Of a DNA stretch of 32,000 bases, positions 1 to 28,700 are shown in pieces. Each line of letters opens with the position of its first letter. The stretch's first letter is position 1. Origin of the DNA: Candidatus Omnitrophota bacterium (GTDB lineage Bacteria; Omnitrophota; Gorgyraeia; Zapsychrales; JANLHA01); contig OY759724.1 of assembly GCA_963662715.1 (NCBI GenBank), positions 720,001 through 752,000 of the forward strand. Reading direction: 5' to 3'. Below the pieces are notes generated by a model. The model was not told the DNA's origin. It saw only the letters and a program-made list of their open reading frames with translations, and made no database searches. Made by a program: the position numbers and the translations under genes.

Positions 1-3000
1 CTTCTGGTCTTCGACACATTCCTTCTTCGGATCTTCGACACATACCGCGCATTCCTCCTGTGACAGCAGACCTAAATCTTCGCATTCTTCCGGCTTGTCC
101 ACACAACCGTAACATTGTTTCCCTTCCCTGGTCTTTTGATCCTCGACACATTCCTTCTTCGGGTCTTCGGCACATACCGCGCATTCCTCCTGTGACAGCA
201 GACCTAAGTCTTCGCATTCTTCCGGCTTGTCCATACAGCTGTAGCATTGCCGGCCTTCTTTAGTCTTCTGGTCTTCGACACATTCCTTCTTCGGATCTTC
301 GACACATACCGCGCATTCCTCCTGTGACAGCAGACCTAAATCGACGCATTCTTCCGGCTTGTCCACACAACCGTAACATTGTTTCCCTTCCCTGGTCTTT
401 TGATCCTCGACACATTCCTTCTTCGGGTCTTTGGTGCAAATCGCGCACTCTTCTTCAGCCAGCAATCCAAGGTCGACGCATTCTTCCGGCTTGTCCATAC
501 AGCTGTAGCATTGCCGGCCTTCTTTAGTCCTCTGGTCTTCGACACATTCCTTCTTCGGATCTTCGACACATACCGCGCATTCCTCCTGTGACAGCAGGCC
601 TAAATCTTCGCATTCTTCCGGCTTGTCCACACAACCGTAACATTGTTTCCCTTCCCTGGTCTTTTGATCCTCGACACATTCCTTCTTCGGGTCTTCGGCA
701 CATACCGCGCATTCCTCCTGCGACAGCAGGCCTAAATCTTCGCACTCTTCCGGCTTATCCATACAGCTGTAGCATTGCCGGCCTTCTTTAGTCTTCTGGT
801 CTTCGACACATTCCTTCTTCGGATCTTCGACACATACCGCGCATTCCTCCTGTGACAGCAGACCTAAATCTTCGCATTCTTCCGGCTTGTCCACACAACC
901 GTAACATTGTTTCCCTTCCCTGGTCTTTTGATCCTCGACACATTCCTTCTTCGGGTCTTCGGCACATACCGCGCATTCCTCCTGTGACAGCAGACCTAAA
1001 TCTTCGCATTCTTCCGGCTTGTCCATACAGCTGTAGCATTGCCGGCCTTCTTTAGTCCTCTGGTCTTCGACACATTCCTTCTTCGGATCTTCGACACATA
1101 CCGCGCATTCCTCCTGTGACAGCAGACCTAAATCGACGCATTCTTCCGGCTTGTCCACACAACCGTAACATTGTTTCCCTTCCCTGGTCTTTTGATCCTC
1201 GACACATTCCTTCTTCGGGTCTTTGGTGCAAATCGCGCACTCTTCTTCAGCCAGCAATCCAAGGTCGACGCATTCTTCCGGTTTGTCCATACAGCTGTAG
1301 CATTGCCGGCCTTCTTTAGTCCTCTGGTCTTCGACACATTCCTTCTTCGGGTCTTTGGTGCAAATCGCGCACTCTTCTTCAGCCAGCAATCCAAGGTCGA
1401 CGCATTCTTCCGGTTTGTCCATACAGCTGTAGCATTGCCGGCCTTCTTTAGTCCTCTGGTCTTCGACACATTCCTTCTTCGGATCTTCGACACATACCGC
1501 GCATTCCTCCTGTGACAGCAGACCTAAATCTTCGCATTCTTCCGGCTTGTCCACACAACCGTAACATTGTTTCCCTTCCCTGGTCTTTTGATCCTCGACA
1601 CATTCCTTCTTCGGGTCTTCGGCACATACCGCGCATTCCTCCTGCGACAGCAGGCCTAAATCTTCGCACTCTTCCGGCTTATCCATACAGCTGTAGCATT
1701 GCCGGCCTTCTTTAGTTTTCTGATCCTCGACACATTCCTTCTTCGGATCTTCGACACATACCGCGCATTCCTCCTGCGACAGCAGACCTAAATCTTCGCA
1801 TTCTTCCGGTTTATCCATACAGCTGTAGCATTGCCGGCCTTCCCTGGTCTTCTGATCTTCGACACATTCCTTCCTCGGGTCTTCGACACATACCGCGCAT
1901 TCCTCCTGTGACAGCAGACCTAAGTCTTCGCATGCTTCCGGCTTGTCCATACAGCTGTAGCATTGCCGGCCTTCTTTGGTCTTCTGATCTTCGACACATT
2001 CTTTCTTCGGGTCTTCGACACATACCGCGCATTCCTCCTGTGACAGCAGACCTAAATCTTCGCATGCTTCCGGCTTATCCACACAGCTGTAGCATTGCCG
2101 GCCTTCTTTGGTCTTCTGATCTTCGACACATTCTTTCTTCGGGTCTTCGACACAAATCGCGCACTCTTCTTCAGCCAGCAATCCAAGGTCGACGCATGCT
2201 TCCGGTTTATCCACACAGCTGTAGCATTGCCGGCCTTCTTTAGTCTTCTGATCTTCGATACATTCCTTCTTCGGGTCTTCGACACATACCGCGCATTCCT
2301 CCTGTGACAGCAGACCTAAATCTTCGCATGCTTCCGGCTTATCCACACAGCTGTAGCATTGCCGGCCTTCTTTGGTCTTCTGATCTTCGACACATTCTTT
2401 CTTCGGGTCTTCGACACATACCGCGCATTCCTCCTGTGACAGCAGACCTAAATCTTCGCATGCTTCCGGTTTATCCACACAGCTGTAGCATTGCCGGCCT
2501 TCTTTAGTCTTCTGATCTTCGATACATTCCTTCTTCGGGTCTTCGACACATACCGCGCATTCCTCCTGCGACAGCAGGCCTAAATCAATACATTCTTCCG
2601 ATTTATCCATACAGTTGTAGCATTGCCGGCCTTCCTTGGTCTTCTGATCCTCGACACATTCCTTCTTCGGGTCTTTGACACATACCGCGCATTCCTCCTG
2701 TGACAGCAGACCTAAATCGACGCATTCTTCCGGTTTATCCATACAGCTGTAGCATTGCCGGCCTTCTTTAGTTTTCTGATCCTCGACACATTCTTTCTTC
2801 GGGTCTTCAGCACATACCGCGCATTCCTCCTGTGACAGCAGGCCTAAATCTTCGCATGCTTCCGGTTTGTCCATACAGCTGTAGCATTGCCGGCCTTCTT
2901 TGGTCTTCTGATCTTCGACACATTCTTTCTTCGGGTCTTCAGCACATACCGCGCATTCCTCCTGTGACAGCAGGCCTAAATCTTCGCATGCTTCCGGCTT

Positions 3001-4260
3001 GTCCATACAGCTGTAGCATTGCTGACCTTCTCTGGTCTTTTGATCTTCGACACATTCCTTCTTCGGGTCTTCGACACATACCGCGCATTCCTCCTGCGAC
3101 AGCAGGCCTAAATCAATACATTCTTCCGGCTTGTCCACACAGCCGTAGCATTGCCGGCCTTCTTTGGTCTTCTGATCCTCGACACATTCTTTCTTCGGGT
3201 CTTTGGTGCAAATCGCGCACTCTTCTTCAGCCAGCAATCCAAGGTCATCGCATTCTTCCGGTTTGTCCATACAGCTGTAGCATTGCCGGCCTTCTTTAGT
3301 CTTCTGATCTTCGATACATTCCTTCTTCGGGTCTTCGACACATACCGCGCATTCCTCCTGCGACAGCAGGCCTAAATCAATACATTCTTCCGGTTTGTCC
3401 ATACAGCTGTAGCATTGCCGGCCTTCCTTGGTCTTTTGATCTTCGACACATTCTTTCTTCGGGTCTTCGACACATACCGCGCATTCCTCCTGTGACAGCA
3501 GGCCTAAATCGTCGCACTCTTCCGGCTTATCCATACAGCTGTAGCATTGCCGGCCTTCTTTAGTCTTCTGATCCTCGACACATTCTTTCTTCGGGTCTTC
3601 GACACATACCACGCATTCCTCCTGCGACAGCAGGCCTAAATCAATACATTCTTCCGATTTATCCATACAGCTGTAGCATTGCTGTCCTTCTTTAGTCTTC
3701 TGATCCTCGACACATTTCTTCCTCGGATCTTCAGTGCAAATCGCGCACTCTTCTTCAGCCAATAATCCAAGGTCGACGCATTCTTCCGGTTTATCCACAC
3801 AGCTGTAGCATTGCTGTCCTTCTCTGGTCTTCTGATCCTCGACACATTTCTTCCTCGGATCTTCAGTGCAAATCGCGCACTCTTCTTCAGCCAATAATCC
3901 AAGGTCGACGCATTCTTCCGGTTTATCCATACAGTTGTAGCATTGCTGTCCTTCTCTGGTCTTCTGATCCTCGACACATTTCTTCCTCGGATCTTCAGTG
4001 CAAATCGCGCACTCTTCTTCAGCCAATAATCCAAGGTCGACGCATTCTTCCGGTTTATCCATACAGCTGTAGCATTGCTGTCCTTCTCTGGTCTTCTGAT
4101 CCTCGACACATTTCTTCCTCGGATCTTCAGTGCAAATCGCGCACTCTTCTTCAGCCAATAATCCAAGGTCGACGCATTCTTCCGGTTTATCCATACAGCT
4201 GTAGCATTGCTGTCCTTCCTTGGTCTTCTGATCCTCGACACATTTCTTCCTGCGATCTTT
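1..4260. repeat. Tandem array of about 32 near-identical 132-bp units, coding and in frame, with higher-order periodicity. Six more diverged units continue to about 4975.
   Basis: The anchor string cataccgcgc (A-type unit) or gcaaatcgcgc (B-type unit) recurs at exactly 132-bp steps: 41, 173, 305, 437(B), 569, 701, 833, 965, 1097, 1229(B), 1361(B), 1493 ... 3737(B), 3869(B), 4001(B), 4133(B). Block 1..528 recurs almost identically at 793..1320, a 792-bp (6-unit) higher-order repeat. Off-frame track ORFs 60..263 and 852..1055 differ by one residue. Units with anchors at 4265 to 4925 keep the protein motif but are diverged at the DNA level. Confidence 0.95.
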
Positions 4261-5208
4261 CTCGCATCTTCTGCATTCTGACTCAGATATTAAACCCAAA
4301 TCCGTGCACTCTTTAGGCTTATCCACACAGCTGAAGCATTGCTTGCCTTCTTTGGTCTGCTGAGCTTCAACACATTCCTTCTTCGGATCCCTGCCACACT
4401 TTTTGCATTCTGCTTTTGACATCAATCCCAAATCTGCACATTCTTCCGGTTTATCAATGCAAAGATAACATTGAGTACCCTCTTTCGTTTTTTTGCTAAG
4501 AACACATTCCTTTTTCGGGTTAGTTTCACAAAGATCACATTCCTGCACATCCAGCAATCCCAAATCCGGACATTTTTCTATCCGATTGACGCATTCAAAA
4601 CAAGATAATCCCACTCCAATATCTTTAGAAAATTTACACTCTTTACCGGGGTTAATCTCGCAACCTTCCTGACACTCGCCCCAAGCTAAAAGGTCAAAAT
4701 CCGAGCATTTTTCATGACTCTCTTTACACTCAAAGCATTGCCGGCCCTGCTTAGTTCTCTTTGAACGCACGCATTCCGCCCCCGGGATCTCTGCGCAAAG
4801 CTGACACTCTTCTCTATTAAGCAATCCGATATCGTTACATTGCTGAAGTTTCTCCGTACACTCATAACACTGCAGGCCTTCATTAGTACGGCGGGAGCGC
4901 CGGCATTCCGCATTAGGAATTTCATCGCACAGGGAACACTCCTCCTCGGTAATGAGGCCTATCTCACTGCACAACTGCGGCAATAATTCTGTAGTGATCG
5001 GGATGTCCTTATCTGGGGTATGGAAGGTTGCTCCTTTCTTAGGATTCGGAAAGGGCAGAGTTTGACGCTTCTTTTTTATCTCCTCCCAAAATTTCTTTAG
5101 ATCAAAAGCCTCTGCCGGACGGACTAAGGGAGAAGCAAAAAATGAACCGCAGATTATTCCAAGAACACATAGTACAATCCGTAAATCATTTTTACGTCTA
5201 ATTGTCAT
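1..5208 (-). CDS. Giant secreted, acidic, cysteine-rich tandem-repeat protein (N-terminal 1736 codons; the frame is open to the left window edge, so the 3' end is outside the window)
   Basis: Absent from the supplied ORF track because there is no stop codon inside the window. Hand translation of the minus strand from ATG 5208..5206 gives MTIRRKNDLRIVLCVLGIICGSFFASPLVRPAEA/FDLKKFWEEIKKKRQ..., a Sec-type signal peptide with an AxA site. About 38 in-frame 44-aa units follow, with consensus T-[KR]-E-G-x-Q-C-Y-x-C-x-D-K-P-E-E-C-x-D-L-G-L-L-x-x-E-E-C-A-x-C-x-E-D-P-K-K-E-C-V-E-D-Q-K. I translated 5208..4261 and 264..1 codon by codon and found no stop. Every minus-strand ORF the track lists inside 1..5208 starts at a coordinate with mod 3 = 1 or 2. 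The frame with mod 3 = 0 never produces a start-to-stop ORF, as expected if it is continuously open. The 132-bp period equals 44 codons, so every repeat copy preserves the frame. Confidence 0.85.
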   Translation of the reverse strand, partial: MTIRRKNDLRIVLCVLGIICGSFFASPLVRPAEAFDLKKFWEEIKKKRQTLPFPNPKKGATFHTPDKDIPITTELLPQLCSEIGLITEEECSLCDEIPNAECRRSRRTNEGLQCYECTEKLQQCNDIGLLNREECQLCAEIPGAECVRSKRTKQGRQCFECKESHEKCSDFDLLAWGECQEGCEINPGKECKFSKDIGVGLSCFECVNRIEKCPDLGLLDVQECDLCETNPKKECVLSKKTKEGTQCYLCIDKPEECADLGLMSKAECKKCGRDPKKECVEAQQTKEGKQCFSCVDKPKECTDLGLISESECRRCEKDRRKKCVEDQKTKEGQQCYSCMDKPEECVDLGLLAEEECAICTEDPRKKCVEDQKTREGQQCYSCMDKPEECVDLGLLAEEECAICTEDPRKKCVEDQKTREGQQCYNCMDKPEECVDLGLLAEEECAICTEDPRKKCVEDQKTREGQQCYSCVDKPEECVDLGLLAEEECAICTEDPRKKCVEDQKTKEGQQCYSCMDKSEECIDLGLLSQEECVVCVEDPKKECVEDQKTKEGRQCYSCMDKPEECDDLGLLSQEECAVCVEDPKKECVEDQKTKEGRQCYSCMDKPEECIDLGLLSQEECAVCVEDPKKECIEDQKTKEGRQCYSCMDKPEECDDLGLLAEEECAICTKDPKKECVEDQKTKEGRQCYGCVDKPEECIDLGLLSQEECAVCVEDPKKECVEDQKTREGQQCYSCMDKPEACEDLGLLSQEECAVCAEDPKKECVEDQKTKEGRQCYSCMDKPEACEDLGLLSQEECAVCAEDPKKECVEDQKTKEGRQCYSCMDKPEECVDLGLLSQEECAVCVKDPKKECVEDQKTKEGRQCYNCMDKSEECIDLGLLSQEECAVCVEDPKKECIEDQKTKEGRQCYSCVDKPEACEDLGLLSQEECAVCVEDPKKECVEDQKTKEGRQCYSCVDKPEACEDLGLLSQEECAVCVEDPKKECIEDQKTKEGRQCYSCVDKPEACVDLGLLAEEECAICVEDPKKECVEDQKTKEGRQCYSCVDKPEACEDLGLLSQEECAVCVEDPKKECVEDQKTKEGRQCYSCMDKPEACEDLGLLSQEECAVCVEDPRKECVEDQKTREGRQCYSCMDKPEECEDLGLLSQEECAVCVEDPKKECVEDQKTKEGRQCYSCMDKPEECEDLGLLSQEECAVCAEDPKKECVEDQKTREGKQCYGCVDKPEECEDLGLLSQEECAVCVEDPKKECVEDQRTKEGRQCYSCMDKPEECVDLGLLAEEECAICTKDPKKECVEDQRTKEGRQCYSCMDKPEECVDLGLLAEEECAICTKDPKKECVEDQKTREGKQCYGCVDKPEECVDLGLLSQEECAVCVEDPKKECVEDQRTKEGRQCYSCMDKPEECEDLGLLSQEECAVCAEDPKKECVEDQKTREGKQCYGCVDKPEECEDLGLLSQEECAVCVEDPKKECVEDQKTKEGRQCYSCMDKPEECEDLGLLSQEECAVCAEDPKKECVEDQKTREGKQCYGCVDKPEECEDLGLLSQEECAVCVEDPKKECVEDQRTKEGRQCYSCMDKPEECVDLGLLAEEECAICTKDPKKECVEDQKTREGKQCYGCVDKPEECVDLGLLSQEECAVCVEDPKKECVEDQKTKEGRQCYSCMDKPEECEDLGLLSQEECAVCAEDPKKECVEDQKTREGKQCYGCVDKPEECEDLGLLSQEECAVCVEDPKKECVEDQK

Positions 5209-7325
5209 TTCTTATCCGAAATATCCACCCCTTCCGGAACAACCTTTTGGGGAATGCTCATGGTTATCTGGACTTGACCGTTATCTAAAAATTGCTCTGC
5301 TTCAACAATCAACAGTTCTTCGATTTCAGTTTCATCTATATGGCAAATATCCGCTAATTCTTTCTTCGTCTGTTCAATTGTCAATTTTTTAGCCATCTCT
5401 TTTTGAATTTCCTCACTAGCATTCTGCATTTTTAATGGTTTGGAAATCCGGGTAAAGTAAATTCTTTCCTCCTGCTGAAGCGCCCCGGGATCAAAAGTAA
5501 AGACTTTGACTTCATCTACGTTATAATCAGAAACATATATTTTCCCTTCTGACCAAGACACAGAAGAAAGAGAAGGGAAATAACTACGCCCTCTGCCAAT
5601 ACTGCCGAACTGCATAATAAGCTGATTCTTGGGGGTAAATATCTTTATAGCGTGATCGCCTCGATCGGCCACATACAAGTTATCATTATCATCCAAAGCA
5701 ATATCAATGGGATCTTTAAACTTGATCATATCTTTCCTGCCGCCGACCTCTCTTAAAAACAGGCCCTCATGGTCGAAGACCTGAATACGGTTATTCTTAT
5801 AATCCAGCACATATAATTCGCCTTTGGAATTAAACGCCAAATCTTTCGGTTCAGAAAAAGTGCCCGGCTTGGGGCCGTGGACATACACCTCTTCACTCTC
5901 TTTCCCGAACGTTTTCAGATAAATTCCGTCGCTGTTGAACACCTGGATCCGGTTATTTTTTGAATCAGAGATATAAATATACCCCTCATCATCAAGGGTT
6001 ACCCCGCCTAAAGCAAGAAATTCGCTCCGGTCTTTTCCTTTCTTGCCAAATTGATAATCAAAGGAACCATCCGCCTTCAAGAATTGCACGCGGTGATTAC
6101 CCGTATCCGTGATAAGAATACGCCCGTCTTCAGCGACAAATAAGGCTTGCGGGTTTCTAAGTTTGCGGTTTTCATCTTCTGTTTTCCCGAATACGAGTTT
6201 CGTGTCGCCAATAAAGGTGATTTGAGCATAATAATCTGACAGGGCATACAATCCCCGGCCCGGGACAGCCTTCAGATCCGCGATCATTTTCCCTGTATAA
6301 ATTGAGGAATCATAATCAAGCATGGGAGGGACAAAAGGAACCGTCTTTAAAGCAGTTTTGCTGCTCCCGGTAATGTTGAAAAACTGGATCCTCCCATTCA
6401 TAGTATCTGCAATATACACCTTACCATCAAGATCACAGGAAATACTTGCCGGCCAATTAAACTGCCCCTTGCCAACCCCCTGAGACCCGAACGAAAACAG
6501 AATCTGTTCTGTCTGGTCCATCTTGACAATGCTGTTGTTCTTCCATTCAATGAGATAAATATCACCCCGGTAATCGACCGCGATACCGGCTGTTTCTGTT
6601 AAGTAGTTCGTTTCCGCATTCTTTAACGACAACTCCTCTGGATTTCCCTGATTGGGAGGATATTTCACAATCTTTCCTTCTTCCTGCGCCAAAACATAAA
6701 GATTCCGCTGTTTATCAAAAGCTAAATCATAAGGACTGAAGTTCACCCCCATGGTTTCCAAAAACACTCCTTTGGGGGTATACTTGGTAATTGCATTATT
6801 TTTTATATCTGCCACGTATATGTACCCGAGAGGATCCACGGCAACCGAACTGATTCTGCGATATTCACCCGGCTCTTTGCCTCCGTTGCCCATTTCATAC
6901 AGGAACTCACCGCTTGCTTTAAAGACCTGTAAACGGTTGTTTCCGGTGTCCGCCACAATAACATCCCCTGAAGAAGTCAAAGCAATGGATTCCGGGACAT
7001 GGAACTGTTTTAACTGGGTGCCCTGTTCTCCGAAACTCAATTTTATTTTTCCTTCGGGACCAAAAATAAAAACTTTAGCCAATTTTCTGTCCAGGACATA
7101 GATGTCACCGGTGGCCGATATGACAGTATCCACGGGTTCCGCCAGTTCGGCCACGATTTCTCCAAGGAACTCAACTTCTTCAACCGCCGACACTCGCCCT
7201 GCGGGAACGAAAATCAAAGACAACACCATAACGATCGGGAAAAACCTCCATCGACTTATTTTCTTCTGAATTTTTGTTTTCATTTGATGTATCCTTTCTT
7301 GCAATTTTTCATTTTTTCTTTTCAT
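5205..7325 (-). CDS. Secreted NHL-repeat protein: about 12 NHL blades (two six-bladed beta-propellers) plus an acidic C-terminal tail
   Basis: Track ORF 5205..7331. About 12 recurrences of the NHL signature P-x-x-[IL]-A-[LV]-D-x-x-G-x-[IL]-Y-[VI]-[AS]-D-x-x-N-x-R-[IV]-Q-[VF]-F-x-x-x-G-x-[FL], for example GDVIVADTGNNRLQVF, GYIYISDSKNNRIQVF, GELYVLDYKNNRIQVF, GRILITDTGNHRVQFL and GKVYIADTMNGRIQFF. The N-terminal hydrophobic segment FFPIVMVLSLIFVPAGRVSA/VEE looks like a signal peptide. I prefer ATG 7325..7323 as the start. AGGAGG at 7337..7332 abuts the TTG at 7331 with no spacer but lies 6 nt from that ATG. The TGA stop at 5207..5205 overlaps the ATG of the downstream giant ORF. Confidence 0.9.
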   Translation of the reverse strand: MKRKNEKLQERIHQMKTKIQKKISRWRFFPIVMVLSLIFVPAGRVSAVEEVEFLGEIVAELAEPVDTVISATGDIYVLDRKLAKVFIFGPEGKIKLSFGEQGTQLKQFHVPESIALTSSGDVIVADTGNNRLQVFKASGEFLYEMGNGGKEPGEYRRISSVAVDPLGYIYVADIKNNAITKYTPKGVFLETMGVNFSPYDLAFDKQRNLYVLAQEEGKIVKYPPNQGNPEELSLKNAETNYLTETAGIAVDYRGDIYLIEWKNNSIVKMDQTEQILFSFGSQGVGKGQFNWPASISCDLDGKVYIADTMNGRIQFFNITGSSKTALKTVPFVPPMLDYDSSIYTGKMIADLKAVPGRGLYALSDYYAQITFIGDTKLVFGKTEDENRKLRNPQALFVAEDGRILITDTGNHRVQFLKADGSFDYQFGKKGKDRSEFLALGGVTLDDEGYIYISDSKNNRIQVFNSDGIYLKTFGKESEEVYVHGPKPGTFSEPKDLAFNSKGELYVLDYKNNRIQVFDHEGLFLREVGGRKDMIKFKDPIDIALDDNDNLYVADRGDHAIKIFTPKNQLIMQFGSIGRGRSYFPSLSSVSWSEGKIYVSDYNVDEVKVFTFDPGALQQEERIYFTRISKPLKMQNASEEIQKEMAKKLTIEQTKKELADICHIDETEIEELLIVEAEQFLDNGQVQITMSIPQKVVPEGVDISDKK

Positions 7326-7340
7326 TTTCAACCTCCTAAA

Positions 7341-7375
7341 ATAAAAAATGCCTATCCCGGATAAGGTATAGGCAT
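7341..7375 (-). terminator. Hairpin plus U-tract immediately upstream of the NHL gene RBS; proposed expression platform of the proximal riboswitch
   Basis: The minus-strand RNA reads AUGCCUAU-ACCUUAUCCGGG-AUAGGCAU followed by UUUUUAUUUU, then AGGAGG. The stem is 8 bp and can be extended by CC/GG pairs inside the loop. Only a few nucleotides separate the U-tract from the Shine-Dalgarno sequence. That placement is typical of an attenuator rather than an end-of-operon terminator. Confidence 0.6.
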
Positions 7376-7385
7376 ATATTATAAT

Positions 7386-7470
7386 ATTTCGGTAACCAGG
7401 CTGTCCTTATCCCAGGACCCTATAGCTTTGCGTCCCCACCTTGCGATGGGTTTGCCCTTTTCGTCTATGT
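7386..7470 (-). promoter_or_regulatory. c-di-GMP-I (GEMM-I) riboswitch aptamer, proximal copy
   Basis: Minus-strand RNA: GACGAAAAGGGCAAACCCAUCGCAAGGUGGGGACGCAAAGCUAUAGGGUCCUGGGAUAAGGACAGCCUGGUUACCGAAAU. It aligns by eye to the Vibrio cholerae Vc2 aptamer (ACAGGGCAAACCAUUCGAAAGAGUGGGACGCAAAGCCUCCGG...GGGGUUACCGAUGG). GGGCAAACC is identical, then comes a hairpin closed by a GNRA tetraloop (CCCAUC-GCAA-GGUGGG), then GGGACGCAAAGC is identical. A second bulged hairpin follows (GGGUCC...GGAC-AG-CC), then GGUUACCGA. Confidence 0.8.
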
Positions 7471-7471
7471 C

Positions 7472-7509
7472 AAAACAACAAAACCTATCCTTTAGACAAG
7501 AATAGGCCT
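7472..7509 (-). terminator. Hairpin plus U-tract between the two aptamers; proposed expression platform of the distal riboswitch
   Basis: Minus-strand RNA: AGGCCUAUUC-UUGUCUAAA-GGAUAGGUUUUGUUGUUUU. The core stem CCUAUUC/GGAUAGG is 7 bp including one G-U pair and can be extended by wobble pairs. A U-rich tract follows. Confidence 0.5.
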
Positions 7510-7527
7510 GATCACGATCCAAAACGG

Positions 7528-7615
7528 CGTTGATTCGGGAACTGGCTATCCTTGATAAAGGACCCTGTAGCTTTGCGTCCCCACCTTGCGATGGGTTTGC
7601 CTTTTTCGTCAATCT
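7528..7615 (-). promoter_or_regulatory. c-di-GMP-I (GEMM-I) riboswitch aptamer, distal copy
   Basis: Minus-strand RNA: GAUUGACGAAAAAGGCAAACCCAUCGCAAGGUGGGGACGCAAAGCUACAGGGUCCUUUAUCAAGGAUAGCCAGUUCCCGAAUCAACG. It has the same conserved core as the proximal copy. The two copies share a 51-nt near-identical stretch, plus strand 7415..7465 versus 7560..7610, with 2 mismatches. The second hairpin shows a compatible change relative to the proximal copy: GGAU-AG-CC versus GGAC-AG-CC, a G-U pair versus a G-C pair. Confidence 0.75.
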
Positions 7616-7629
7616 ATTTTTCCAGTCCA

Positions 7630-7658
7630 AGTATATAATATTCATATTCAAAAAGCAA
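7630..7658 (-). promoter_or_regulatory. Candidate sigma70-like promoter for the riboswitch leader
   Basis: The minus strand reads TTGCTT (7658..7653), then 17 nt, then TATACT (7635..7630), about 15 nt upstream of the distal aptamer. The -35 is a weak match in an AT-rich context, so this could be chance. Confidence 0.3.
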
Positions 7659-8463: not shown

Positions 8464-8835
8464 CTATTTGTCTTTCAGCACTTCTTCAAATTCCTGCTGC
8501 CACGCCGGATCTACCAGGCAAATAAAAACCAAATCTTCCGTCCCGTTATTTTGGATACACTGTTCTGCCTCCGGAGGGATATAAACAGCACATCCTGCTT
8601 CAACCGGGGCTTTCTCCCCGTTAATATGCATAATGCCCTGTCCCGCTAAAATGTAGTATACTTCTGAAGCGCCTTTCAGGCGATGAGGCAAAGTCGTCTG
8701 AGCAGGGCGGACTACGGCATGGGCCAGGCTGTAACGGCACTGGATATCCGCCTTATCCGGATGAAGAAGCTCTCTTAAAAGACAATGGTCTCCGGCGGTA
8801 AACTCCCGGGACTCTGACAATCTGCGTATCAGCAT
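8464..8835 (-). CDS. Cupin-domain protein
   Basis: 123-aa ORF. LPHRLKGASEVYYILAGQGIMHINGEKAPVEAGCAVYIPPEAEQCIQNNG fits the cupin_2 two-motif beta-barrel pattern. Its start overlaps the upstream transporter's stop by 7 nt. Confidence 0.7.
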   Translation of the reverse strand: MLIRRLSESREFTAGDHCLLRELLHPDKADIQCRYSLAHAVVRPAQTTLPHRLKGASEVYYILAGQGIMHINGEKAPVEAGCAVYIPPEAEQCIQNNGTEDLVFICLVDPAWQQEFEEVLKDK

Positions 8836-10154
8836 TCACACTCGCTTCCGAAGAAAATAACAGTTTGATTTGTATAAAACATCCCTGCGACACAGGCGGT
8901 CAACAAACAAGCAAGTGTGGCCGCCAAGAGTGCCCGCCAGGAAACATCGGCCAACAGGCTCCGTCTTTCATGCGTTAAAGCGGAAATTCCTCCCACGAAA
9001 ATAGCCATGGAGGCCAAGTGGGCAAACCCGCACAGCGCATAAGTCGCAATAACAACAGAACGGGCATGGATAATTTGTCCTGAATTTATTAGCGCGGCCA
9101 AATCCTGATAAGCCACCACTTCGGTGACAACGGCCCGTTCAGCGACAATCCCCGCTATGGGGCCGGCATCCTGCCAAGGAACACCTAAAAGGAGGGTAAA
9201 CGGGAAACACAAATATCCCAGCAGGCTTGCCAGTGACCAATTCAGTTTAAATCCCAGCCAGGGATTGATAACGCTGCCGACTCCCCCAAGAATCACATCT
9301 ATTAAAGCGACCAGTCCTAATACGGCGATTAATAAAGCCACAATTCCAACGATCATCTGAACCCCGGCATTGGCTCCGTTCATAATGGCCTCGAAAAGGG
9401 TTCTTTCCTTCTCATAGTACGGCTGGACACGCACACCTAAGGTCGTTGGCGTTTCCTGTTCCGGGACAAGAAGTTTGGAAATGACAAGTGCGGCCGGGGC
9501 CGAAAGCAAGGAAGCCGAAATCAGATGGGCGGCAATCGTAGGGAACGTGTCTCTTAAGGTCATAACATAAAGGGCCAGGACATTAGAGGATACCGTGGAC
9601 ATGCCCACGGCCAAAATCGTACAAGCCTCGGAACGCGTCATGTCTTTCAGATAAGGTTTAACGGTCAAGGCGGATTCGATTCCGACAAAAATATTGCTGG
9701 CGGCCACAAGGGACTCCATCCCGGAGACCCTCATCAGTTTTGTAAAAACAAAAGCAAACGCCCGGATGATGCGCGGCATGATATTGCAAAAATACAAGAC
9801 AGAAACAAGAGCGGAGAAAAAAATGATCGTGGGGAAGCCCTGAAAAGCCAAAATAAACCCCAAAGAAGATTCCCCGGCCGGTCCGGTTTCTCCCGGGGGA
9901 AAAGCTAATCTTCCAAAAACGAACTTACTTCCTGCCGAAGCGGCTTCAAGCACTTGAATGACAACATCGTTAAGAAAAAGGAAGACCCGTGCCCCGGCCG
10001 GAAGGACAAAAATAAACACGCCCATCAACAGCTGTAATCCCACCCCCCAGAGAACAACCTTACGGTTGATGGAAGAGCGGTTTTCAGATAAAAGCCAGGC
10101 AAAGATTAAAAGAGTCAGGAAACCGGAGAAACTAATCAGGTTATAAATCCCCAT
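8829..10154 (-). CDS. nupC: Concentrative nucleoside transporter, NupC/CNT family
   Basis: 441-aa polytopic membrane ORF. GFILAFQGFPTIIFFSALVSVLYFCNIMP and the C-terminal YALCGFAHLASMAIFVGGI match conserved NupC blocks as I recall them from E. coli NupC (..ALCGFANFSSIGI..). Confidence 0.8.
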   Translation of the reverse strand: MGIYNLISFSGFLTLLIFAWLLSENRSSINRKVVLWGVGLQLLMGVFIFVLPAGARVFLFLNDVVIQVLEAASAGSKFVFGRLAFPPGETGPAGESSLGFILAFQGFPTIIFFSALVSVLYFCNIMPRIIRAFAFVFTKLMRVSGMESLVAASNIFVGIESALTVKPYLKDMTRSEACTILAVGMSTVSSNVLALYVMTLRDTFPTIAAHLISASLLSAPAALVISKLLVPEQETPTTLGVRVQPYYEKERTLFEAIMNGANAGVQMIVGIVALLIAVLGLVALIDVILGGVGSVINPWLGFKLNWSLASLLGYLCFPFTLLLGVPWQDAGPIAGIVAERAVVTEVVAYQDLAALINSGQIIHARSVVIATYALCGFAHLASMAIFVGGISALTHERRSLLADVSWRALLAATLACLLTACVAGMFYTNQTVIFFGSECEC

Positions 10155-14874: not shown

Positions 14875-15264
14875 TTACGCAGGAGAGGCCGCGGGAGCAT
14901 ATTTTCCTTTGCCAAAAAATTCCACTAATTTTTCAGCGTAAAATTTGACAAATTTCCGCTCATCAAATTTTATCGGATCAACAATCTTAACACCTACCCG
15001 GTAAAGCAACGGATAATCCGTCGGCCGGCCTTTTTCCTGTTCAACCCGTACGATTTTCGCATGAAGTTCAATTTTCATATTAATCGGCAGTAAAAGAAAC
15101 ATCAGGAGTTCCTGCCGGATCTGCAGTTCTTCCGTTGTTATAAAAGCCACTCCCGTTCCGCTGATATCCAGCGTTGCCGTGTCGATGAGTTTTTTTCGGG
15201 GGGGAACCCTGAAGCTCATCGGAATTTCAAGTTTCATCCGGTGATATCGTCTTTTATCTGACAT
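14875..15264 (-). CDS. Single-domain PilZ protein (predicted c-di-GMP receptor)
   Basis: 129-aa ORF. It has the N-terminal RRYHR (RxxxR) motif and D-I-S-G-T-G (DxSxxG) about 30 residues later, the two signature c-di-GMP-binding motifs of PilZ domains. Confidence 0.8.
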   Translation of the reverse strand: MSDKRRYHRMKLEIPMSFRVPPRKKLIDTATLDISGTGVAFITTEELQIRQELLMFLLLPINMKIELHAKIVRVEQEKGRPTDYPLLYRVGVKIVDPIKFDERKFVKFYAEKLVEFFGKGKYAPAASPA

Positions 15265-18468: not shown

Positions 18469-21400
18469 TTAATCCTCTTTTTCATCCACCTTATCAATGA
18501 TACTTAACCGCGCTTCAGAGCTGTTCGCCCGGATCTCCGGCACATACATGGCATGGACCTGATTAGGCATCCCGTGAAAATCTCCCGGGATTTCGGCACG
18601 GAGCTCATAGGTGATCTTATGTTTTCCCTGCGGAAGTTCTGTAATAAAAAAGGCCGCTTTCTGGTCGCGGAATTCCTTATAAAGCCAGACCTGCCTGCCC
18701 TGGGCCTCCTCGTCTTCATCTAAAGTCACGGCATATCCGCTGCCGCTTTTTAACTCTGTCGCTTCAAAACCGGCGGGCTTGTAATCTTCCACAACCAGAT
18801 ATTCGTAATGATTTTTGGCTTCCAATTGGATCTCAACCCGCACCCGGTCCCCGCTCATTAACCGGTCACCTATCTCCAGGGGCTGCCATTCGTCTTTATA
18901 CCCCTTCAGCAATGTCTCTTTTTGCGACTGCCGGGAATACGTGCGTTTCACAAAGACCTCGTTTCCGGCAGGGGAAATATTTTCTTCCAGAGTGAAATAT
19001 TTCAAATACCCGGACAGATATAAAGCCCCTTCCCCTTTCATGGCGACTGTCACCTGATTAGAACCGTTTTTCAGATACTCTTGCGGAACGGTAATGTTAC
19101 GGTTATAAGTAAACAGGTTCGCCCGGCTGACATGCCCTTTCGTTAAGGATTGACCGTTGACAAACACTTCATAATCAAAATCCGGCGTTAGCTCCAACGT
19201 CGTTTTTAAATAATCCGCCAAACCCAAAATAGCAACAGCCGTATCCCGGGTATTTTTCCACCTTGCTCCCCGCCGGTTTAAGGCGAGCCATTTGACGGCT
19301 GACTCCAAATGAGGACTTTGCGGGTCAATGTTCGCCAGCGCTTTAATGACAAAGGCCGTCGCTTCAACCCCGCCTTCACTCCAGCGGTAATTTACGCCGG
19401 ATTCTCCCCAATGAACCGTTCCGTTTTCCGGATCTTCCTGCATCCCGTTCACCAAATTCCGGGCCAAAACCCGGGCATTATCCAAACGGCCCCGCTGGAA
19501 CTCAGATAAAGCAAACAAGGCCCGTGTATAGGGGTTAAGCTGATCCCGCATATCCCAAAGACGCTGGCTTTGTTTTTCTTCATACCGGCTGTTGGACCTC
19601 GTCCCGGCCAAAGCATGCAGCATCCATGCCAGCATATCCGGATTATCCTCTTCCTCAACGAGTTCTTTCTGCAGGAAATTCACGGCCCGGGCAATCACTC
19701 CGCCTTCAATTTTTATTCCGGCCTGCTGGGCCAACGACAGCCCCCAGGTCACATAAGCCGTCATAAAACGGTTGCTGTCATCTTCTTTCCACCAACCCCA
19801 GCCGCCGTCCTCATGTTGAAACTCATATAATCTTTTAACGGCTTTCTCGGTAACGGCATTGAGCTGCTGCAGAGAGGCGTGCTGGGACATATGAGGATAA
19901 GCCGGGTCTCCCCGCGGCTCCATGACATCGCTGATATAGGCCGAAACTTCATCCCGGGAAAAGCCTAGTTGATGTAAAGTTTTGGCGACGATAACCGAGG
20001 GCAGGAAACGGCTCATGGTCTGCTCCACGCAGCCGTAAGGATAATTCGCAAGATACGGCAAAGCATCCAGCATGGCCGCGGCCATAGACGGCGACATCAC
20101 GAGCTCTAAAGAGGTCGACTCTTTCATGCGCTCCGCAGGGACGTGCAGAACAAACTCGGCACGATCTTCTTTATCCCCGGCGGATTTCAGGCTCAAGCTC
20201 TTGGCAATAAACTTCTCGATCCCGTGAGGAATGACCGGATAGACTTTTTTCATGGCGTCAGCCTCATCAGCGGCCTGGGCCATGACGGTTATATCGGCCT
20301 GGCCGGCCAAAGGCGCCGCACAAATCCAGTCTACCCGCTGCTCTCCTTGGGACGGGACTGTCACCCAGGCCTCAGGAGCGTCCATCACCTGCAAACCCTT
20401 GGCATCAAGACTCACTTTGATCTTCTGTTCCTGATCAGTATAATTATGAACATTGGCTGAAATGGTGACTTTGTCCCGTTCGGTAAAAAAACGCGGAGCC
20501 TGCAAGCGGACAATCACGTCTTTGTTTGTCCTTACCTCATGAGTGATATTCCCTATTTTCGTTCCCCGTGTCATGGCACGCGCTGTCGTCTGCCAGGTCG
20601 TCAGCGAATCAGGAAAACGGGCTTTTATCTCCGCCCGGCCGTCTTCATTCGTCATCAACACCGGCTGCCAAAATACCGTTGAACGGAAATCAGCCCTCAC
20701 TTCAGGAGTCGCAAGACCGGCATCATCGCCCAGAACCGCCCCTATTTCGTCCATCTCCATCAAGGCTTCTTCCCTGGGGGCCGAAAGAGCCGGGCTGGCC
20801 AGACCTTTCATTTTGCCGACCACCGCTCTGCTGGATTTAACCTCCATGTCCGACATTTCTTTGCTGAGCTCACCGGCGACTCCTTCCCCGAACACCATCC
20901 CCCCGCTCGCGGCATCAAGCGTTTGAACCTGGACGCTGTAATCTAAACGGTGTTCGTTTTTCTTGTCCGCATCTTTTATCAAGCTCCTCCGGAAACGTTC
21001 ATCTTCCGTGATAATCTGTCCGTTCTCATCCCGGACGAGCAGCTGGTAACGTTTTTGGTTAAAACTCGTCTGGGTCTGCACGGACAGCTGTCTTTTTTCC
21101 CCGAAGAAAAATTCCCGGATATCCTTGGCATATTCACTCTGGATATAAAAAACGCTCTTGTCCACCATGCCTAAAGCCACTTCAGCCACAACAGGCTGCC
21201 CTTTATGATCCGTCACTTCTACTTCAAAGGCCCCTTCTTCGCGAGGGCCATAGGATTCCTTATCTGCTATAATCTTAACATTAAGGAATTTCTCCTCCGG
21301 AGGAACGACAATCGGCAGAGAATACATCTTTAACTGATAATGGTCCGCAGAAACAGCATTAAAAAACATATTGGGGATAAAATAATCCTGAACGGGGACC

Positions 21401-25740: not shown

Positions 25741-28700
25741 TTAATTTAAACGGCTCAGGTTATCCTGAACATTAGGAAGGAACTTCTCCTGAACATCTGC
25801 CTGAGGGAATAACGGACTTAAGGATGCTGCCGTGGAAGGATTCTCCGGGGATTCCGACATACCTAAAAATAACGGAATATTTATGGGAGAAATTTGAATA
25901 ATAACCGGCTGAAAACCTTCAATATTCATACTTTTCACCGGCTGCTGCAGTAAAGGCAACGGCACACCCTGCCCATCCCGTTTGATCTGCAAATCAAGGG
26001 CAGCGGGATTGAAATCAATACCACCAATGTCCTCTATCGCTGCGTTTTCCTCCAGACTTTGCATAATCGGGGAACTGCGATGTTCCCCATCGCTTCCTTC
26101 ATCCAGAGGTTGCTGCTTGTCTTCGGGATAACCGGCGGCTAACTGAGTTTTATGCTGATCTTCGCTCTCAGCGAGTCTTGTCTCTCCTTCCCGCCTTTGC
26201 AGGTCCCCCCGCCAAAACTCTTTCAGGCGGTCCCAGCCATCCTTTTCCGCCTTTTCTATAGCCTCCAGAAGCGGCAAATATAATGTGCGGGAAGCTCTTG
26301 TTCTTTGCCCTTCACTTCGTAATTTGTCCTTTATATAATTTTTGGCAAAATCTTTATGCTGATCGGATGCCAGCATCGCAAGAATAGCTTCTTTTTCAAG
26401 CTTATTGGCCTGAGGCCAATGATGAATCAGGGCGATAATATCTGCAATTCCTCCGTTGAAATATGCCTGGGAAAGATAGTACTGCGGTGAATCGGGATTC
26501 ATAACGATGATCGTTAAAGCGTTGTTGGCCATGATCCTCACCCAATAATCTCTCACAGTGCCGAAACTCCCGCCAAGATAGTAAGACGGATCGTTATGGG
26601 CCGCAATAATCAAACTGGGAATCGTTTCCCGGTGATCAGGGCCCAACTCAATAAAAAACTGGGCTGCCTTAATGCGCAGTTCAGGGGTATCACCTTGCAG
26701 CAAAACCTCGGAGGCCACCTGAGCGGCTTTTACGGTTTCCCCGATACCATAAAGCGCCTCGGCGGTTTTAACCCCTAATTCAGGATGATCTGCATACCAG
26801 TCATACAAGAAAGAGGCCATGGATTTCAGTCCCGGGCCCGCTTCCGCAATAATTTCATAAGCCCTCTTCTGAACTTCATCTGACCGATGAGTGACGGCTT
26901 TCCTCAGGCCGGCCTCAATACTGTTTGCCCCGGCCACAACATCAAGGAACTTTTCATCCGAAGGAGCCAAGGCCCGGAACATCCCGGCAACGTCACTTTC
27001 TTCATAATAACCGAAATCAATCAAGGCTAAAACGAGGCTCCTGCAATTGGCCCCTTTTTTAAAGTTCCGGAACCGGTTCAAGAGGACCGGCCCCGCTTCG
27101 GTAAACCTGGTGACCCGTAAAGCATCATGCAGTTTCTTACGGAGGAAATCGTCATTGTATATCCACTTGCTATAAATATTAAAAACATTTGGGCCGACGG
27201 CAGCGCCCTGGGAAGCCATATCGGCATAAGCAATGATAATTTCCTCTCCAAAACTACGCCGCATAAAAGAATCCTGCAGGAATTCGTCCAAAGTCGCTGT
27301 AATCTCATCATTAGCCAAACCGATTCTGCCCAATGCCAAAATCATATCACTGTAGTCGCTGTCATTAATATAGCGCAATCCCGGACGAGGCGCTTTCCAG
27401 CTGTCGGCATTATCTTTTAATTTCTCCTTTAACCTCGCGATCAGAAACGGAACAGCTTTTTGAGCATATTCTTGTTCTCCCATATAGGAAAATGTCAGGG
27501 CCGCCCCGAGGGCGATCTCGGGATCAGAGTGATCCAGGGCCTCCTCTAAAACAGGAGAGACATCGGCAGGAGCATAAGACATGAAAACAGTAAAAATTTT
27601 GTCAAAGGTGTCCTCATTCGCCCGATAGAGAAAATCTTTGGATATATATTGCCTGAAATGGTCCTTTTTAGCTTCTTCGCTATAATGGCTCAGCAACTGT
27701 GTCATGCTCTGGCTATTCATCCAGCCCTCTCCGCTAATCCGGATACGCAGCTGCATATTTCCCATAAGCTGCTGAGCAACAGACAAATCCTCTGGCAAGG
27801 CCCTGTCCTGCCCCTCAGCCATAAAGGCCCGTCGCTTCTGGCTGTAATAAATAGCGATTTCGGCAGGCCACTGCGTCTCTGACAACCGCTCGTCAGCCTC
27901 AACGTAATAAAGATTATCGGCTTGCTGAGGATTATAAAGGGCCTCCAATATTCCATAAGCTTCATTACGGACCGCGAAGTTTTCGTCCAATAACGTTATC
28001 AGCATCATGTCCGTCAGTTCTTTTTTGTGGTCACTCCTTAAAGAAACCGGGAAATTCAGCCGGACACGGATAGATTCCAGGGTGATTCTGCGTATATCAG
28101 GATCAGGATGTCTTAAGTTACGGTAATCAAAATATGTGTCTTTCTCCGAAGCTTCTTCTGTGCCGGAGTCTTTTGCTTTTGCTTCAACAGTTCTGCTCTG
28201 TATACCGGGTTCTAATGTAATATCAAAGTTTTTCTTCAAATAATCCGCCACTCTTTGATCATAATGCACCCGCAGTTTTCTTAACGCCTCACTTTTCATG
28301 CCGGTCACGTCGCCGGAAAAAATATGATGCCACAGGGGAATCGCGGCAAAGGGGTCAATGGTGGCCGAAGCGGAAATAATACTTTTTTTAATTTTAAAAG
28401 ATTTTACCCTGCCGTAGATTTCTTTTAACAACGGCAAGGATTGGCTCGCACCGCTCCCGATCCGTTCCAGAGTGTTGATAGGATCGACAATTTGTCTGAC
28501 TTCAAAATCCGCCCGCGTAGGGAAAAAAATTCTTTTGGAACGGGTTTCCTTGTCCAGATATGCCATCAGGGACGGGACAGATGCTTCACCGATAGCGACT
28601 AAAGCGTCGCTTGGGTCATAAACAAGAACCAGATTCGGAGTCGCATAACTGTCATATAAATCAACTAATTGGGGGACCGCCATCTCGGCCTCAGGCCCGA

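Follow-up and report, generated by a model that had tools for sequence, protein, structure and literature searches.

Two surface proteins are among the closest described parallels to the gene reported here: the Clostridioides difficile adhesin CD2831, a large repetitive surface adhesin under c-di-GMP riboswitch control, and the collagen-adhesion protein of Bacillus thuringiensis, which lies behind a triple c-di-GMP-I riboswitch. The gene belongs to the Omnitrophota, uncultivated, ultra-small bacteria that are mostly anaerobes and are believed either to depend on other cells or to prey on them. Tandem arrangements of c-di-GMP riboswitches are common and frequently stand ahead of surface-anchor genes, such as the COG4932 genes that sit behind tandem c-di-GMP-II riboswitches (PMC9481103). 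The giant proteins of Omnitrophota (Archaeovorins, Dockerin-type) have been proposed to mediate contact with other cells (bioRxiv 10.1101/2023.11.21.568195; 10.64898/2026.06.07.730766); in these two reports NHL figures only as one repeat type inside the giants and not as a partner gene, and neither mentions cysteine repeats, riboswitches or c-di-GMP.

We analyzed a window of 32,000 nucleotides from a Candidatus Omnitrophota bacterium (contig OY759724.1, positions 720,001 to 752,000). Like the riboswitch-controlled adhesins, its repeat gene encodes a long exported tandem-repeat protein and has at least two cyclic-di-GMP-class riboswitches in series in the leader. It differs from them in its module (a 44-residue Cys6 unit instead of Cna-B or Ig-like domains), in having no LPXTG or other anchor that we could see (the C-terminus lies outside the window, and orthologues were judged by eye), in its host (a diderm of the PVC group), in its NHL propeller partner, and in its switch, which is probably OFF rather than ON. 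With the Omnitrophota giant proteins it shares the phylum, length, richness in repeats, and a probably extracellular location. However, the complete relatives measure about 1–2.3 kaa versus >30 kaa for the giants, and we rejected membership of the Archaeovorin/Dockerin type because the required domains (HEAT, TPR, glycosyltransferase, dockerin, TSP3) are absent from the visible 1,736 residues and from the complete relatives. The EGF-like, LDL-receptor class A, and thrombospondin modules (about 40 residues) are similar in size, in their six cysteines, in tandem beads-on-a-string arrangement, in export, and in acidic character, but their cysteine spacing is different and the module has no Pfam/NCBIfam or PDB fold match, so that these eukaryotic six-cysteine modules are at most a functional analogy. 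The locus is a concrete attachment candidate for Omnitrophota, a conserved operon for an exported propeller and a very long, putatively cysteine-stapled repeat protein, and it has a readable regulatory input in its two predicted cyclic-dinucleotide riboswitches. With the function that we infer, it would be a link between c-di-GMP signalling and the surface architecture of this phylum.

Gene order and conservation show the repeat gene to be the second gene of a predicted two-gene operon behind a riboswitch leader. The partner gene upstream (5205..7325, minus strand) encodes a 706-residue exported NHL-repeat β-propeller protein (Pfam NHL, E 1e-57), is preceded by AGGAGG at 7332–7337, and ends in a TGA that shares bases with the start codon of the repeat gene (ATGA), an arrangement suggestive of translational coupling. 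The NHL gene is directly upstream of the repeat gene in 7 loci, including L002, L007, L015, L027, L022, and L024, and the order riboswitch–NHL–Cys-repeat recurs in three diverged lineages; in L022 and L024 the NHL protein is only 46–49% identical.

The leader contains two matches to Rfam RF03167 on the minus strand, aptamer 1 at 7533..7610 (65.3 bits) and aptamer 2 at 7387..7465 (65.5 bits), both above the curated gathering score of 59 for this c-di-GMP-I-class model (Rfam clan CL00126). Behind each aptamer comes a terminator-like hairpin with a U-tract: that of riboswitch 1 lies at 7471..7509 (minus strand), was found by terminator scan with a T-rich tail, and is conserved in the alignment, while that of riboswitch 2, read from the sequence at 7338..7375 (minus strand) as ATGCCTAT...ATAGGCAT and then a T-run, lies just upstream of the NHL start. 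This layout is kept in the orthologues. Rfam aptamer matches above gathering also occur in L002, L007, L015, and L027, weaker aptamers occupy the same place and strand in L022 (two) and L024, and the hairpin motif of riboswitch 2, GCCTAT...ATAGG plus U-tract, is conserved in the orthologues, L022, and L024. We conclude that the leader comprises two complete predicted c-di-GMP-I-class riboswitches in series, for which the 'GGC' variant is the best model; this variant is reportedly described in a 2017 PNAS paper. At the position where the RF03167 consensus is GCGAAG and the RF01051 c-di-GMP-I consensus is GCAAAg, the two aptamers have GCAAAG. Because the riboswitches are in series, a sharp, switch-like response is expected. 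The polarity of that response is taken entirely from thermodynamic folding. In the second aptamer stem, the 3′ strand (GGATAGCC) imitates the 3′ arm of the terminator, and when the RNA is folded without that arm, this strand pairs with the 5′ arm in each of the four orthologues. The modelled architecture makes an OFF switch, in which ligand binding would lead to termination, reasonably likely; against it, unit 2 of the window adopts the aptamer-plus-terminator fold with no constraint applied. An ORF at 7379–7651 (minus strand, 90 aa) sits on the leader and was rejected as spurious.

The repeat array (1..4971, minus strand), defined by translation and Tandem Repeats Finder, has 38 full units (37 of 44 residues and one of 45) and one partial unit; the program reports for 1–4386 a period of 132, 33.2 copies, 87% matches, and 0% indels. 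A strict 44-codon period had been claimed in the preliminary description; the period holds for 35 of 36 spacings among the 37 automatically detected units, but one unit of 45 codons breaks its strictness. Apart from the first 6 units, which are diverged, the units are ~85–90% identical. Every unit carries six cysteines with the spacing C-x10-C-x2-C-x7-C-x11-C-x2-C; they are invariant across 40 diverged units, and all six are present in 439 of 457 distinct units. The window protein has this spacing together with the family motifs D-[LI]-G-L-[LI] and T-K-E-G-x-Q-C-[YF]. AlphaFold2, run on four units with an alignment built from the protein's own repeats, gave a helix, a second helix, and a β-hairpin per unit at pLDDT 91.7 (two of five models confident, pTM 0.48).

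Taken jointly with the operon and leader, these features give a slightly better than even chance that the locus encodes a second-messenger-gated, cysteine-stapled surface fibre or adhesin. Each exported module would fold as a small bead of helix plus hairpin, held together by its cysteines, most probably through three disulfides, one of them C12–C23; the beads would make a long acidic rod or fibre with a Cys-rich cap at its end; the fibre would act at the cell surface alongside the NHL propeller, in attachment or as a matrix structure; and the level of cyclic dinucleotide would switch fibre production sharply.

The cysteines could also bind metal, in which case the modules would not be purely disulfide-stapled and the protein would be an exported polymetallic scaffold for storage, sequestration, or redox chemistry. 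C12, C15, C35, and C38 would form a Cys4 Zn/Fe site resembling a RING first site or a zinc ribbon, and C1 and C23 would have a separate role. We consider this unlikely, although the two CxxC pairs per unit are the classic Cys4 pattern and a probably anaerobic lifestyle speaks against disulfides. No disulfide-forming machinery was seen in the window. A profile search of PDB sequences matched only Mdm2/MdmX RING domains, at E 9e-5 with the window's own repeats and 6e-6 with the family-wide profile, and the alignment places five cysteines at the identical spacing of the first zinc site (C-x2-C-x7-C-x11-C-x2-C). However, the profile score derives almost wholly from these five cysteines, the only ones in the alignment; the second-site CxxC aligns insignificantly, and the second-site ligands are absent from the module, which is moreover exported and tandemly repeated. 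A Foldseek search of the PDB with the pLDDT 91.7 model returned neither a RING nor a zinc-ribbon fold (best E 1.0, none below 1, and the top 50 matches free of RING domains; since Foldseek has difficulty with small domains, this negative carries little weight), and the model puts C12-x2-C15 on a helix and C35-x2-C38 on a strand rather than in knuckles. We rejected membership of the Mdm2-type RING fingers because the module lacks the eight cross-braced zinc ligands and its predicted fold has no RING match. Finally, there is only one genuine case of a unit that has lost two cysteines, and the pair lost is C12 and C23 (in P0011, P0018, and P0026, counted as a single evolutionary event); C15, C35, and C38 are kept, a hint that a C12–C23 disulfide fits the joint loss better than a metal site that includes C12.

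A more ambitious version of the fibre is quite unlikely in our view: the Cys6 module would be a phylum-specific new extracellular fold that builds a fibre of >100 nm, metal-loaded or densely disulfide-bonded, deployed with a double NHL propeller for host or prey contact and switched by the tandem cyclic-dinucleotide riboswitch. Its metal-loaded form would have one Cys4 site per bead and at least 39 per chain. If true, it would represent a new class of attachment organelle under RNA-level second-messenger control.

By its sequence, the repeat protein carries a Sec-type signal peptide at residues 1–34 (5107..5208, minus strand), as the preliminary description had proposed. The N-terminus reads MTIRRKNDLR, with the basic n-region RRK, followed by a hydrophobic core of 20 residues and a predicted signal peptidase I site, AEA↓FDL. 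The AxA↓FDLK site is kept in four orthologues (P0008, L002, L007, and L015), with ACA, AQA, and AHA found at the AxA position. A lipoprotein reading of the orthologue group was rejected because no cysteine of the signal region has a lipobox before it; distant relatives and paralogues have lipoprotein lipoboxes in place of the AxA site. Between signal peptide and array lies a nonrepetitive linker of 45 residues (residues 35–79, FDLKKFWEEIKKKRQTLPFP...; 4972..5106, minus strand) that is conserved in orthologues.

Surface exposure of the repeat protein, rather than periplasmic residence, is assumed in the fibre or adhesin reading. An alternative in which the protein is no surface adhesin but remains periplasmic, with a structural or buffering function, draws on the Sec signal being the only one visible: by eye, orthologue C-termini contain no LPXTG, T1SS, T5SS, T9SS, or PEP-CTERM signal. 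The C-termini of orthologues and paralogues end ...CY[DST]C..(K/E) and a stop, with neither LPXTG nor a hydrophobic tail by eye, and we saw no signal for outer-membrane secretion or anchoring in the orthologues. A periplasmic protein is nonetheless quite unlikely, as at least 39 bead-like modules are too long to fit easily in the periplasm and the paralogues are lipoproteins or bear secreted-protease domains.

The modules are, by profile searches, a rare, unannotated family known to date from uncultivated Omnitrophota alone. A repeat-profile search of 1.84 billion representative proteins returned only 26 relatives, of which all that are named are 'hypothetical protein' and from Omnitrophota, and a search with alignment A4 of closer relatives yielded 13 genome loci, all in uncultivated PVC-group MAGs (10 of the 13 labelled Omnitrophota). 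Pfam gave no family for the visible 1,736 residues, apart from a subthreshold Polo-box match that we treated as noise, and none for three complete relatives, and NCBIfam gave none for the repeat protein. Known Cys-rich extracellular families (EGF, LDLa, TSP, furin-like, Myxococcus Cys-rich repeat, and others) were rejected for want of a significant Pfam/NCBIfam HMM match. A word-index protein search with residues 1–520 or with the 44-residue family alignment returned no matches although the profile search finds relatives, which we attribute to the limits of such an index with this composition rather than to an absence of relatives; a contig scan with the window protein alone likewise found no relative. 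The repeat family that this locus defines is new and could enter Pfam.

The 3′ end of the repeat gene lies beyond base 1 of the window, and the supposition in the preliminary description that the protein could be very large does not sit well with its relatives. Neighbouring genes have records on just two contigs, a Logan contig of 6.8 kb and one of >1 Mb, and three alternative starts of the NHL protein gave no record. Eight complete family members have 860–2,271 residues. The complete relatives and the split orthologue piece L025 end in a C-terminal Cys-rich cap (C..[DE].Y..C..C......C......[FY]......CY.C), and in the orthologue C-termini the repeats run straight into this short cap. From these lengths and the direct passage into the cap, the total is probably ~2,000–3,000 residues, which is more likely than a giant of >10,000. 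The visible 1,736 residues would otherwise be the N-terminal stalk of a far larger multidomain protein, ending in a subtilase or exceeding 10,000 residues. In keeping with this, the gene leaves the window still within homogeneous core repeats, Omnitrophota are known for giant genes (bioRxiv 10.1101/2023.11.21.568195), and five relatives (P0004, P0011, P0014, P0018, and P0021) have modules N-terminal to Peptidase_S8 domains or matching subtilase motifs. We regard so large a protein as very unlikely, because the closest orthologue, split over two contigs of its MAG (L027 and L025), ends in L025 with repeats, a 45-residue Cys cap, and a stop, as does L012, and because the NHL-linked complete relatives L022 (1,684 residues) and L024 (2,271 residues) consist of repeats and cap and nothing else. 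The subtilase-bearing relatives carry signal peptides, and the position of the modules ahead of the protease domain in these proteins supports an extracellular stalk role.

The minus strand at 1..5208 holds the 5′ portion of a real gene of this bacterium, a partial CDS for an exported Cys-rich repeat protein with orthologues in L002, L007, L015, and L027. The preliminary description had posited a frame, absent from the ORF list, that runs from ATG 5208 without a stop for 1,736 codons or more, and had pointed to 265..4260 as the interval where an in-frame stop would count against it; translation bears the frame out, with 0 stops in 1,736 codons, that interval included, and 31–83 stops in each of the remaining five frames. 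An in-frame TAA at 5214–5212, one codon 5′ of ATG 5208, makes this ATG the earliest possible start. The repeat units differ at 18% of nucleotides, and pairwise comparison of 34 regular units gave 3369, 2333, and 7344 differences at codon positions 1, 2, and 3, with 23, 18, and 40 of 44 columns variable, respectively. Since these differences fall mostly at third positions, the frame is under purifying selection. A noncoding satellite or assembly artefact, stop-free by chance, is already effectively refuted: a short stop-free unit copied many times does automatically yield a long open frame, and the short-read assemblies of every orthologue found break inside the array, but the first 212 codons, which are nonrepetitive, likewise lack stops and are conserved across four further assemblies, the units show the 18% divergence with its strong third-position excess, diverged complete homologues exist in eight other MAGs, and the operon context is conserved. 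The ORF list for 1–5208 holds only ORFs of 83–201 residues, which are out-of-frame artefacts of the repeat, as had been suspected; the true frame is missing because the lister leaves out any ORF that is cut by a sequence end. Such repeat genes are systematically lost both to routine ORF listing and to short-read assembly.

The minus strand carries a single long frame, beginning at ATG 5208 and running without interruption to base 1. Translation gives 1,736 codons and no stop, in agreement with the preliminary description, which had not translated every codon of 265–4260; there is no stop in 1–5208 and hence none in that interval. The absence of the frame from the ORF list is, as had been deduced, an artefact of the tool, because the lister by its own description leaves out ORFs that run off the end of the source; within 1–5208 it returned solely ORFs of 83–201 aa. 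The other five frames contain 31–83 stops each. ATG 5208 is the earliest possible start, with an in-frame TAA one codon upstream (5214–5212). Since a stop-free unit that is copied repeatedly is open by construction, we sought independent evidence of coding. Among 34 regular repeat units, pairwise differences at codon positions 1, 2 and 3 numbered 3369, 2333 and 7344, and 40 of 44 third positions varied compared to 18 of 44 second positions. The mean nucleotide identity of the units was only 82%, and the longest exact repeat was 223 nt. From the third-position excess and this level of identity, we conclude that the units diverged long ago and that purifying selection acts on precisely the ATG 5208 frame. 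The minus strand also has a strong purine excess, which fits a Glu/Lys-rich product (E 17.6%, C 13.1%, K 11.1%, and D 8.6% of the visible protein).

The protein begins with a signal peptide (residues 1–34; MTIRRKNDLR, a hydrophobic core, then AEA|F), followed by a unique linker (residues 35–79) and, after residue 79, the repeat array, with consensus C.DLGLL...EEC..C.EDPKKECVEDQKTKEG.QCYSC.DKPEE. Each unit is a six-cysteine (Cys6) module with the spacing C-x10-C-x2-C-x7-C-x11-C-x2-C and nine invariant columns. Tandem Repeats Finder reported a period of 132 in 1–4386 (33.2 copies, 87% matches, no indels). At the protein level we counted 38 full units and one partial unit, each of 44 residues apart from a single unit of 45. 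The 44-codon period described earlier stands but is not quite strict. Units 1–6 are diverged and later units are near-identical in protein sequence. Identical protein units recur at lags of 6–7 units in the distal part of the array (window about 1–2600), and nucleotide identity among the last 15 units peaks (about 0.90) at lags of 2, 6, and 7, which hints at higher-order segmental duplication of 6–7 units.

A Pfam search of the protein gave a single sub-threshold match, which we treated as noise, and an NCBIfam search gave none. Searching 1.84 billion representative proteins with a profile of the unit returned only 26 matches at E 1e-3 or better, which we sorted into four groups: a fragment of the orthologue (P0008); small and medium proteins in which repeats are followed by a C-terminal cap that is conserved and rich in Cys; lipoproteins that carry a lipobox; and five proteins of 1,300–2,400 aa with repeats N-terminal to a subtilase domain, together with one truncated 1,430-aa repeat protein in which no subtilase region is visible. 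In the five (P0004, P0011, P0014, P0018, and P0021), Cys6 modules alternate with a second Cys-rich unit type over the N-terminal 700–1,700 residues and Peptidase_S8 lies at the C-terminal end, identified by Pfam for P0004 and P0011 and by conserved subtilase motifs for the other three. Because the modules precede subtilase domains in these relatives, this arrangement suggests that the Cys6 module is a general extracellular stalk. Pattern scans found 13 metagenome loci and 13 loci in species-representative genomes. Wherever a family member has a named source, it is Candidatus Omnitrophota, and the annotation is "hypothetical protein". The 13 genome loci all lie in MAGs, ten labeled Omnitrophota or Omnitrophica and three (L015, L021, and L026) labeled "uncultured Planctomycetales bacterium". 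These three labels are probably imprecise: L015 is collinear with the Omnitrophota-labeled L027, and both show 70–72% NHL and 80–81% PFK identity to the window.

None of the six cysteines varies among 40 diverged units, and of the family's 457 distinct units, 439 have all six. Because their number is even and the module is exported, three disulfides per unit would be expected. The only genuine case in the family of a unit losing two cysteines takes away C12 and C23 together and leaves C1, C15, C35, and C38; this joint loss points to a C12–C23 bond. A Cys4 metal site is a live rival to the disulfides: in profile searches of the PDB the sole match is the Mdm2/MdmX RING finger, in which five cysteines are spaced identically, and its E-value falls from 9e-5 to 6e-6 when the family-wide profile is used. 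However, the secondary structure predicted by AlphaFold2 disfavors a metal site. Four units, with an alignment built from the protein's own units, were modeled with a mean pLDDT of 91.7 (two of five models confident, pTM 0.48), each unit showing a short helix, a helix with C12-x2-C15, and a β-hairpin with C23 and C35-x2-C38. Foldseek found no relative of this model in the PDB (best E 1.0), and the lack of a RING fold among its matches likewise disfavors a metal site. By the Pfam, NCBIfam, and Foldseek/PDB comparisons, the protein appears to be a member of no described repeat family.

The 3′ end of the gene lies outside the window. The array reaches the left edge with repeats of the homogeneous core type, which means that at least about 200 residues lie beyond it. 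The orthologue is split inside the array in every short-read assembly; in MAG USDV_maxbin.135, contig L027 closes with the N-terminal part and contig L025 opens with the C-terminal one, in which the repeats pass through two or three diverged units to the cap and then to a stop. The cap also closes every complete family member (860, 1,211, 1,219, 1,259, 1,684, 1,819, 1,838, and 2,271 aa). The protein is longer than its visible part, as described earlier, but its relatives do not support a very large size: they argue for about 2–3 kaa in all and against a "giant".

The repeat gene's ATG shares bases with the TGA of the gene upstream of it (ATGA). That upstream gene has a good Shine–Dalgarno sequence and encodes an NHL-repeat protein of 706 aa, whose N-terminus is likewise signal-like. 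Neighboring genes are collinear with, and 47–87% identical to, those of loci L002, L027, L007, and L015, all of which keep the order tandem riboswitch, NHL, Cys-repeat gene, including the ATGA overlap. By the identity and collinearity of these neighbors, the window belongs to an Omnitrophota genome. In the distant operons L022 and L024 the NHL protein is only 46–49% identical, and its gene again lies directly upstream of a complete Cys-repeat gene.

Two c-di-GMP-I-class aptamers precede the NHL gene on the same strand, at 7533–7610 and 7387–7465 (both minus; Rfam RF03167, "GGC" variant, 65.3 and 65.5 bits versus a gathering score of 59), and downstream of each is a separate terminator-like hairpin with a U-tract. 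On sequence grounds, the operon leader is two complete c-di-GMP-I-class riboswitches in series. A 90-aa ORF overlying the aptamers (7379–7651, minus) is spurious. Weaker c-di-GMP-I-like aptamers lie upstream on the correct strand in L022 (two) and L024 (a single one and an additional 3′ half), and the window's GGCCTAT...ATAGG terminator motif recurs after them. Both window aptamers have GCAAAG in place of the GCGAAG of the RF03167 consensus; because this agrees with the RF01051 c-di-GMP-I consensus (GCAAAg), c-di-GMP is the likeliest ligand. The organism evidently uses c-di-GMP signaling, as a 129-aa PilZ-domain protein, likely a c-di-GMP receptor, is encoded 9.7 kb away (14875–15264, minus; Pfam E 4e-11), a position kept in L002, L007, and L015. 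On its 3′ strand the second aptamer stem carries AAGGATAGCC, which is almost a copy of AGGATAGGT, the 3′ arm of the terminator. When the RNA is folded only up to the start of that arm, the AAGGATAGCC strand pairs with the terminator 5′ arm in riboswitch unit 1 in each of the four orthologues, whereas the picture for unit 2 is less clear. The aptamer strand would thus serve as antiterminator and ligand binding would release the terminator, implying an OFF switch, the polarity toward which we lean. Canonical RF01051 riboswitches also occur on the opposite strand a few kb from other family members (L018 4817–4907 and L021 582–648, both minus), and the class seems common in Omnitrophota genomes carrying the family.

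Beyond the directly established operon structure, export signals, modular Cys6 architecture, conservation, and riboswitch leader, we propose that the repeat protein would act with the NHL propeller as an extended surface stalk, fiber, or adhesin, because it forms a long, acidic chain of beads that are small and rigid, its paralogues have either a lipid anchor or a protease at their distal end, and Omnitrophota are thought to live attached to other cells. The surface reading also draws on precedents in which tandem c-di-GMP riboswitches precede surface-anchor genes (PMC9481103), and by analogy the operon may work like known riboswitch-gated giant adhesins. We saw no signal for transit across, or anchoring in, the outer membrane, and the protein may instead be periplasmic. 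Large secreted repeat proteins are familiar as a basic category, and the function here is one that we infer; what is new is a module family, undescribed and restricted to the phylum, in an operon that is conserved and under riboswitch control, of interest for research on Omnitrophota, c-di-GMP riboswitches, and protein repeat families. Two papers on Omnitrophota giant proteins (bioRxiv 10.1101/2023.11.21.568195; 10.64898/2026.06.07.730766) mention no cysteine repeats, riboswitches, or c-di-GMP, and name NHL only as a repeat type inside giant proteins, whereas here it is the partner gene.

Elsewhere in the window, the genes at 8829–10154 and their neighbors match a 6.8-kb Logan contig (run SRR34447553) at 100% identity. 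They also occur on a contig of more than 1 Mb, and the window probably comes from a long-read or near-complete assembly. The C-termini of two large neighboring proteins, from a 1,553-aa and a 519-aa ORF (approximately 25741–26030 and 30440–30730, minus) share a domain of ~95 residues (59% identical; motif GGIDFNPAALDLQIKRDGQGVPLPL...PVII.I.P.NIPL.LG) that has no Pfam or NCBIfam match in that region and could be a sorting or anchoring domain. A 1,951-aa bacterial α-2-macroglobulin with MG2, bait region, TED, and MG10 domains is encoded at 18469–24324 (minus), and a homologue (53% identical) also lies just downstream of a Cys-repeat gene in L016.
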